This document shows, in pieces, positions 1 to 1,077 of a DNA stretch of 1,077 nucleotides. Both the position numbers and the translations under genes were made by a program. The stretch comes from Escherichia coli (GTDB lineage: Bacteria; Pseudomonadota; Gammaproteobacteria; Enterobacterales; Enterobacteriaceae). The stretch's first letter is position 1, and the number at the start of each line of letters is the position of its first letter. The DNA lies in the NCBI RefSeq assembly GCF_003334335.1, contig NZ_QOWQ01000123.1. The stretch is one strand, 5' to 3'. Below the pieces are notes generated by a model that saw nothing but the letters and a program-made list of their open reading frames with translations, did not search any database and was not told where the DNA came from.

Positions 1-344
1 TATGACCACGCATCGGTACGTAACAGATATCCGCTACCTGTGAAATGAATCCATTCTGATTCACCAACGTCACTGGTCTGATGCGACAGCGAGTACAGCC
101 AGGCGTTATCCTTTTCCGTGATATGTGCGGTACTGCAGCGTATGCCGGCAAGGGTTGCAAACGGTGGTAGTGTGCAGGTTGACTGTTGGTCGGATTCCTC
201 CACCACGCGGAGTGAATAACCGTTTTCAGCGACCTTGTTAATCAGTTCAGTGAGATTAACACCATCGACGTCAACGACAATTCGCCCCATGTTCAGTGCC
301 TGCACATTAATTCTGTCGGCTTCCAGCATCAGGGAAAGTTTCAT
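1..344 (-). CDS. Small protein downstream of the toxin, probable YeeW/DUF5983-like; 3'-partial (runs off the window at position 1)
   Basis: ATG at 344..342 overlaps the toxin TGA (minus-strand ...AAACGATGAAAC...). I translated the frame by hand and it stays open for 114 codons to the window edge: [114 protein letters not shown]... A GGAG Shine-Dalgarno lies 5 nt upstream of the ATG. It is absent from the supplied ORF track, presumably because no stop falls inside the window. The family assignment is from recollection of conserved synteny (cbeA-cbtA-yeeW), not from recognising the sequence itself. Confidence 0.6.
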
Positions 345-715
345 CGTTTCTCCGGATGCTTACCCAGGGTAATGTTATTTACCGTTCTGTAATTGTCGCG
401 GGTCATCAGGCCGGTCGCCCGGCGAGCCCGGAGGATATCAATACTGTTTATTAACTGAGAGCGGGGACAAGTGCTGAATCCCGGCTGGTCGGTACGCACC
501 AGCGCGTATTTTTCCACGAGAAAATTCACCGCATCACACAGTGAAATGCCAGCTTCAATATGCTGCTCAATCACACGTTCATCGGCGAACGGTGTGTCAT
601 TCAGTGTAAGGCCGTAATGCTGGCCCAGTAGTCGGGAGAGCAGAGTCTGCCAGATGGTGACGGGAGACGGGCAGCTCGATGCCTCCCGTACGTGTGTATC
701 GGGTAATGTTTTCAT
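341..715 (-). CDS. cbtA: Type IV toxin, CbtA/YeeV (YpjF/YkfI) family, complete 124 aa
   Basis: Complete ORF with ATG at 715..713 and TGA at 343..341. The translation carries the conserved core I recognise from E. coli CbtA paralogs ([57 protein letters not shown]...[34 protein letters not shown]). It sits immediately downstream of a YeeU-family antitoxin on the same strand, which is the canonical gene order. The symbol is family-level; the N-terminus ([26 protein letters not shown]) may be closer to the ypjF-type paralog. Confidence 0.93.
350..353 (-). promoter_or_regulatory. Shine-Dalgarno (GGAG) for the downstream gene, embedded in the last codons of the toxin
   Basis: Minus-strand GGAGAAACGATG: GGAG followed by a 5-nt spacer and the ATG at 344..342. 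The position inside the upstream CDS together with the ATGA overlap indicates translational coupling. Confidence 0.5.
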
Positions 716-804
716 ACTGAAGGTTTTCCTGATATGCAGAGATGAAAAATGGAAAAGTGGCGTGGTGAAAGCACCAGGCCGGAGCAGAAGGTTATTCCGG
801 TGGT
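716..804. other. 89-bp antitoxin-toxin intergenic spacer
   Basis: Non-coding on the gene strand between the antitoxin TAA (807..805) and the toxin ATG (715..713). It contains short inverted repeats (ccgga/tccgg at 779..783 and 796..800; tggtg/cacca at 763..767 and 772..776) and an A/T-rich tract at 741..757. Confidence 0.5.
727..730 (-). promoter_or_regulatory. Putative weak Shine-Dalgarno (AGGA) for the toxin
   Basis: Minus-strand CAGGAAAACCTTCAGTATG: AGGA with an ~11-nt spacer to the toxin ATG at 715..713. The spacing is longer than optimal, consistent with modest toxin translation. Confidence 0.35.
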
Positions 805-1077
805 TTACTTTTTCGTTTCGGGCGTCGGATAAACAGCCAGATAAACGTAACCACAGGAGCCGAGGGTGTCAGCTTTGCAGGTCAGACCTTTTGCATACAG
901 CGTGACGGTATGCTGATGGCGGGGATTCAGTTCACCGCTGGTGAGCATGAGTTCCAGTTGTTTCATCAGCAGCGGAAAGGCCTGGTCCAGGTGGTACGCA
1001 TCTGCATCGCTGAACAGGCCTCTGATACCGGCGCGGTCGGCAAGGTAATGCAGGCGGTTACCCTCCTGCACCAGACG
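805..1077 (-). CDS. cbeA: Type IV antitoxin, YeeU/CbeA (YfjZ/YafW) family; 5'-partial, N-terminus lies beyond position 1077
   Basis: The minus-strand frame is open from the window edge (codons [90 protein letters not shown]) to a TAA stop at 807..805. From memory this matches the C-terminal ~90 residues of E. coli YeeU-family antitoxins (~122 aa) almost residue for residue. The 'M' at 1071 in the ORF track is an internal GTG (Val) codon, not the true start. The symbol is family-level; the exact paralog (yeeU/yfjZ/yafW-like) cannot be resolved without alignment. Confidence 0.92.

Follow-up and report, generated by a model that had tools for sequence, protein, structure and literature searches.

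A widespread CbtA-family toxin allele of Escherichia coli that differs from K-12 CbtA mainly at its termini

Is a CbtA-family toxin whose two ends differ from those of the K-12 protein an unusual allele, and may such a toxin prefer a different target? Nearly all that experiments have shown about CbtA was learned from the three copies of E. coli K-12. The question was raised by a stretch of 1,077 nucleotides from an Escherichia coli contig (NZ_QOWQ01000123.1), which is called the window here. The reference paralogs are CbtA, YkfI, and YpjF of E. coli K-12 MG1655 (NC_000913.3). The window contains the following features.

341..715, minus strand: toxin gene, encoding an intact CbtA-family type IV toxin of 124 codons plus TGA (start ATG at 715..713, stop TGA at 343..341), whose product is RefSeq WP_000854753.1.
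805..1077, minus strand: end of a YeeU/CbeA-family antitoxin gene (its last 90 codons and the stop), whose 5′ end lies beyond the window edge.
716..804, minus strand: antitoxin-toxin spacer of 89 nt; identity to its K-12 cbeA-cbtA counterpart is about 80-97%, and there is one 1-nt indel.
1..344, minus strand: beginning of a DUF5983-family gene (ATG at 344..342), which runs off the window after 114 codons.

The translation of 341..715 is exactly the protein that was quoted in the original prediction. Its residues 1-112 align with positions 1-112 of the 112-position Pfam model CbtA_toxin (PF06755) with an E-value of 1.1e-61 in hmmscan, which is a full-length family match. In an alignment of 44 sequences chosen as diverse representatives of the family, it was found that all of the nearly invariant residues (L29, H33-Y34-G35-L36, L38, D40-T41-P42-F43, I49, I53, G56, N64, V67, R74, and D76) are kept in the window toxin. 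In the public protein collection, the exact protein is present on at least 1000 contigs and goes by the names "toxin", "cytoskeleton-binding toxin CbtA-like protein", and "Aec76" (UniRef Q5I3I9_ECOLX), and its RefSeq title is "TA system toxin CbtA family protein". Copies of the 375-nt gene with 100% identity occur in at least 40 complete E. coli genomes among the matches listed, ETEC H10407 and APEC IMT5155 among them, and 611 records reach at least 99%. The proposal that this is a distinct allele holds in the sense that the protein is not identical to CbtA, YkfI, or YpjF, but this intact, widespread, and already catalogued allele is neither new nor unusual. It is ordinary because it differs from K-12 CbtA only in segments that are variable across the whole family, with the exception of the change from Arg15 to Cys. 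An NCBIfam scan of the toxin, the antitoxin fragment, and the DUF5983 fragment gave no family match, PADLOC gave no match to a defence-system model, and a literature search on "Aec76" returned irrelevant matches only. PHROGs gave a single family for the toxin, without annotation: residues 15-81 (window 473-673) match positions 269-335 of the 649-position profile phrog_23459, of unknown function, with an E-value of 6e-10. Since the match lies inside this long profile, the CbtA-like core may be embedded in larger phage proteins.

In protein alignments, the window toxin is 88% identical to CbtA, 59% to YkfI, and 63% to YpjF, so that no characterised K-12 paralog is 100% identical to it. There are 15 differences from K-12 CbtA (window residue first): D6V, T7L, H8P, V9G, R10Q, E11A, C15R, T20E, T24I, G31D, T82A, P84T, H120Y, K123A, and R124K. 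Thirteen of them fall within 36 terminal residues (at residues 6-31 or 120-124), and the remaining two are at residues 82 and 84. The clustering at the termini is beyond chance: Fisher's test gives p = 1e-6 for a partition picked after the data had been seen, and the longest run without differences, 50 residues, has a permutation p of 0.0035. The original prediction had described termini that differ from K-12 CbtA, a divergent N-terminal block of about 25 residues, and an essentially invariant centre. The terminal divergence was borne out; the N-terminal block exists but reaches residue 31, and the centre is nearly rather than strictly invariant.

The nucleotide sequence of the toxin gene was compared with that of K-12 cbtA, and the segments of interest are as follows.

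623..715, minus strand: divergent 5′ segment, codons 1-31, of the "DTHVRE...C15...VT" N-terminal type, with 10 amino acid differences from K-12 CbtA.
671..673, minus strand: codon 15, TGC (Cys) here and CGC (Arg) in K-12 CbtA.
521..574, minus strand: conserved core stretch with V48 (572..574) and F65 (521..523), residues tied by genetics to binding of the FtsZ H6/H7 loop.
464..472, minus strand: small variable loop segment, codons 82-84, T-C-P here and A-C-T in K-12.
344..358, minus strand: variable C-terminal tail, codons 120-124, HPEKR here and YPEAK in K-12, beyond residue 112, the last one covered by the Pfam model.

The two genes differ at 28 of 93 nt (30%) in codons 1-31 and at 6 of 18 nt (33%) in codons 119-124, and at only 8 of 147 nt (5.4%) in codons 32-80 and 3 of 99 nt (3%) in codons 86-118. 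In codons 32-119, all of the changes from K-12 are synonymous (11) except those at codons 82 and 84, which points to strong purifying selection on the core. Codons with a synonymous change are also more frequent in the N-terminal block (8/21) than in the centre (11/86; p = 0.011). The conserved Ser13-Ser14 pair (window 674-679) is written TCG AGC here and AGT TCT in K-12 cbtA. Since each of these codon-family switches needs multiple substitutions, the N-terminal divergence would be old, with selection keeping the Ser-Ser pair. Along the whole window, the comparison with K-12 gives a profile of short divergent patches amid nearly identical stretches. One such patch is the toxin/DUF5983 junction, where identity falls to 50% and there is a 9-nt indel; another, a small one, is located in the antitoxin gene.

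Are these segments peculiar to the window? A search of 5.8 billion proteins gave 2280 relatives at E <= 1e-10. Among the full-length E. coli cluster representatives there are two main N-terminal types, the window type and the K-12 CbtA type "MKTLPVLPGQAASSRPSPVEIWQ.LL". The 82-86 loop occurs across the family clusters as ACTRS, TCPRS, AGAPS, AGVPS, or AGAPSS, and the tail as YPEAK, HPEKR, HPEAKQ, HPEAKR, or others. Each N-terminal type was found with either loop of the pair ACTRS and AGAPS and with either tail of the pair HPEAKQ and HPEAKR. This combination of N-terminal types with loops and tails is a four-gamete pattern, which is a signature of recombination. From these alignments, the terminal differences are best read as a mosaic of old alternative segments and not as recent point mutations of K-12 cbtA. 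Many truncated and fused copies exist within the CbtA family. Two relatives of 205 and 176 aa (P0016 and P0017) reach 349 and 337 bits with the 124-aa query, above the 259 bits of the best-scoring listed single-copy relative (P0002, 96% identical). Because they outscore it, they probably contain fused or tandem partial CbtA copies.

A sequence search of the PDB with the toxin found no solved relative, and a Foldseek search of the toxin model against the PDB found nothing significant (best E = 4). The substitutions were therefore placed on a predicted model rather than on an experimental structure or complex. The AlphaFold model built from the 44-sequence alignment has a mean pLDDT of 84 and a pTM of 0.75; a single-sequence model (pLDDT 57) was set aside. 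The predicted helices are 18-34, 46-54, 59-70, 91-101, and 109-116, while residues 71-90 form a predicted loop. The pLDDT is below 50 for residues 6-12 and averages 48 for residues 121-124. On this model, the six substitutions at 6-11 lie in a tail predicted to be unstructured, and substitution 15 lies just ahead of predicted helix 1. Substitutions 20, 24, and 31 would share one face of helix 1 with the variable position 27, as judged from helical periodicity. Substitutions 82 and 84 are placed in the predicted loop, and 120, 123, and 124 in the C-terminal tail beyond the Pfam domain, the latter two with low confidence. The family-wide entropy is 2.2-2.5 bits in the variable segments versus 1.24 in the core. 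Thus, the variable segments of the window allele coincide with family-wide variable regions.

What do the differences mean for the targets of the toxin? The original prediction had connected the divergent termini with target preference, and two cytoskeletal proteins, FtsZ and MreB, have to be considered. F65S abolishes FtsZ binding by K-12 CbtA, and V48E suppresses FtsZ-D180K in an allele-specific manner (Heller, Tavag & Hochschild 2017, PMC5624674). Both V48 and F65 are unchanged in the window toxin, and FtsZ inhibition is very likely conserved, as far as these two residues can tell. On the MreB side, the R15C substitution in K-12 CbtA specifically removes the MreB two-hybrid signal and turns lemon-shaped cells into filaments, and no CbtA residue other than 15 has been shown by experiment to be required for MreB binding (PMC5624674). 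The window allele has Cys15 and so lacks the Arg15 that marks a K-12-type dual inhibitor of FtsZ and MreB. YkfI and YpjF, however, have a natural Cys15 and still block elongation and produce lemon-shaped cells; C15R has no effect in either, and YpjF binds MreB despite its Cys15 (PMC5624674). Thus, Arg15 is not a family-wide requirement. Across the 44 diverse family representatives, position 15 is Cys in 21, which makes it the commonest residue, and Arg in 9. In a BACTH study of the three K-12 toxins, FtsZ binding was detected, and MreB binding was detected for none of them (Wen et al., PMC5371832). A shift in the target preference of the window allele is thus no more than possible.

The toxin gene lies directly downstream of the YeeU/CbeA-family antitoxin gene on the same strand, which is the type IV toxin-antitoxin arrangement. 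The antitoxin portion in the window is 96% identical to K-12 CbeA and matches PDB 2h28 (YeeU) with an E-value of 3e-55. A promoter scan found no sigma-70-like promoter in the window, which is consistent with co-transcription of the antitoxin and the toxin, and terminator-like matches in the window are no more frequent than in shuffled sequence. On the other side, the downstream gene matches Pfam DUF5983_N (E 5.5e-29) and DUF5983 (E 4.9e-8); it is intact to the window edge and encodes 162 aa in the matching genomes. The matching complete genomes annotate the three genes as YeeU-family antitoxin, CbtA toxin, and DUF5983 family protein, and a 2023 survey (PMC10790755) reported that CbtA toxins constantly have DUF5983 as their downstream neighbour. 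The TGA of the toxin gene overlaps with the ATG of the DUF5983 gene in an ATGA junction. The toxin gene ends with GGAG AAA CGA TGA, and a Shine-Dalgarno-like GGAG in codons 121-122 precedes the DUF5983 ATG by a 5-nt spacer (junction sequence GGAGAAACGATGA). Since the GGAG and the spacer lie within the variable toxin tail, this would be a dual-use sequence, which suggests translational coupling with DUF5983. The best full-length genome match of the window, CV839-06, deviates from it at five bases, and all of these lie in an 11-base section of the antitoxin gene, 855-865. Their effect on the protein is a Gly to Cys replacement (SGGYVY to SCGYVY), the residue being as in K-12 CbeA, YafW, and YfjZ. 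The closest match to segment 716-1077 in 5426 complete E. coli genomes is 98.9%, so that none is exact. By its sequence, the 855-865 cluster looks like a micro-conversion patch.

It was then asked how common each N-terminal type is. Of 5426 complete E. coli genomes, 3759 have the window-type 5′ 93 nt (at 6834 places) and 3573 the K-12-type 5′ 93 nt (at 4350 places). Each type is thus present in about two thirds of the complete genomes. The two 93-nt queries have no 28-mer in common and therefore cannot cross-match, and inclusion-exclusion puts the number of genomes with both types at no fewer than 1906. Cluster sizes had made the K-12 type look like a minority, a view that was overturned by the genome counts, which gave a similar prevalence. 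As for location, islands at three chromosomal sites have WP_000854753.1 at their end: beside nan/fim (CV839-06), beside yghD/gsp (H10407), and beside cadC (IMT5155). Its positions in the island loci are:

12363-12737 in L004: gene for WP_000854753.1.
L006 and L007 (15001-15375): gene for WP_000854753.1.

At all three sites the island module runs in the order DUF905, DUF932, antirestriction, JAB/RadC, DUF987, CbeA, CbtA, DUF5983, and DUF957. The presence of the identical protein at three island sites indicates a module that is mobile and multi-copy, and the idea that the gene is the ortholog of a single K-12 locus was rejected.

Taken together, the window toxin is probably a functional, common, and catalogued CbtA-family allele whose differences are old variable segments reassorted by recombination around a conserved core. 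The allele would sit in the usual cbeA(yeeU)-cbtA-DUF5983 module that ends tRNA-associated integrative islands. Recombination among the several island-borne copies in a genome may reassort the N-terminal tail with the helix-1 face, the 82-86 loop, and the C-terminal tail. By analogy with the characterised homologs, the window allele would be toxic, bind FtsZ, and inhibit MreB. When the toxin is not counteracted, its conserved core would bind the H6/H7 loop of FtsZ and block division, and it probably also disturbs MreB-dependent elongation, as the Cys15-bearing YpjF and YkfI do. [quoted passage not shown]

The differences might instead be functional. It is doubtful, but conceivable, that Cys15 on a CbtA-like core has lost or weakened MreB binding, so that the window type acts mainly on FtsZ only and produces filaments, while the Arg15 K-12 type is the dual inhibitor. 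The R15C result in K-12 CbtA speaks for this, as does the core of the window toxin, which is nearly identical to that of CbtA and so places the toxin closer to CbtA-R15C than to YpjF. The helix-1 differences, inferred from their spacing to lie on one face, would be beside residue 15. In addition, a region with UTI89_C1149, a homolog of the same N-terminal type, was enriched in a screen in which filament-inducing clones were sorted (PMC6206680), although this support is weak because the antitoxin gene and neighbouring genes were present on the same clone. The behaviour of YkfI and YpjF with either residue argues that the effect of residue 15 depends on its context, and Cys15 is the commonest residue of the family at this position. 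The substituted N-terminal tail is predicted to be unstructured. Tan et al. (2011) are said to have found that YeeV without its first 15 residues still gives lemon-shaped cells, and that C-terminal deletions lead to elongated cells. The co-existence of both N-terminal types in at least 1906 genomes fits this reading, but it is equally explained by the presence of several islands per genome. The stronger version of this reading, in which E. coli keeps two ancient N-terminal versions, an Arg15 "VLPGQA" type that hits FtsZ and MreB and a Cys15 "DTHVRE" type (that of the window) that is a natural equivalent of R15C and hits FtsZ only, is somewhat less likely still. If it were true, most genomes would carry a division-only toxin beside a division-plus-elongation toxin.

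Another explanation makes the protein changes by-products of module swaps, shaped by compatibility within the module rather than by target choice: the C-terminal codons would be formed by their role as ribosome-binding region and spacer of DUF5983, and the N-terminal segment would co-vary with the version of the upstream spacer or antitoxin. The ATGA junction with its GGAG fits this explanation, as does the constant partnership with DUF5983; moreover, the divergence peaks exactly at the toxin/DUF5983 junction, and the N-terminus of DUF5983 differs from that of yeeW too. The spacer and the 3′ end of the antitoxin gene, however, are 90-100% identical to K-12, but the toxin 5′ segment is only about 57-73% identical in 30-nt windows (70% over codons 1-31), which argues that the N-terminal block does not simply travel with its upstream neighbour. 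In addition, the K-12 antitoxins cross-neutralise all three toxins (PMC5371832), which is against tight pair specificity. As a whole, this explanation is improbable. Sequencing or assembly errors, or the decay of a pseudogene copy, have practically no chance of being the source of the differences; nothing was found in favour of this explanation, and it was rejected: the ORF is intact and matches the Pfam model over its full length, identical DNA is found in many independently sequenced complete genomes, and the nearly exclusively synonymous changes of the core reflect purifying selection.

The mosaic reading of a common allele therefore remains the preferred one, with one residual point: the window allele pairs a CbtA-like core with Cys15. 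The window N-terminal type is at least as common as the K-12 type, and it has Cys at the position that controls MreB binding in CbtA. The pairing thus bears on whether the "dual inhibitor" model of K-12 applies to most natural CbtA toxins.

How does the window toxin compare with the known members of the family? K-12 CbtA (YeeV), the toxin of the CbtA/CbeA type IV toxin-antitoxin system, is also 124 aa long, and its residues 32-119 are the same as those of the window toxin except for 82 and 84. The K-12 locus has the same order of antitoxin, toxin, and yeeW/DUF5983, but yeeW is a 64-aa remnant of the DUF5983 gene, and the similarity stops after about 55 residues, whereas the DUF5983 gene of the window appears to be full-length. 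K-12 CbtA belongs to the cryptic prophage CP4-44, while the window allele is found on islands at other chromosomal sites. YpjF (CP4-57) and YkfI (CP4-6) share the Pfam family, Cys15, F65, and the core motifs with the window toxin. In contrast, with 109 and 113 aa they are without the C-terminal tail, the N-terminus is of a third type (AT/ITQR...KPCL), and their core departs at many positions where the window toxin agrees with CbtA. UTI89_C1149 (WP_001094434.1), a CbtA-family toxin of UPEC UTI89, is 94% identical to the window toxin, has the same "DTHVRE...C15" N-terminal type, and lies in the same module, including DUF5983, DUF957, and DUF4942. The differences (window residue first) are K2N, S14G, S27T, G31D, T82A, P84T, K123A, and R124K, and in the mid-loop (ACTRS) and the tail (HPEAK) it has K-12-like versions. 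Finally, the laboratory mutant CbtA-R15C (Heller, Tavag & Hochschild 2017) combines a CbtA-type core with Cys15, as the window allele does. Since R15C alone ended the MreB signal in this nearly identical core, dual action of the window allele cannot be assumed. On the other hand, the mutant differs from K-12 CbtA at residue 15 only, whereas the window allele also differs at residues 6-11, 20, 24, and 31. With such a natural, co-evolved N-terminus, the MreB-blind phenotype of the mutant would not simply be transferable to the window allele.
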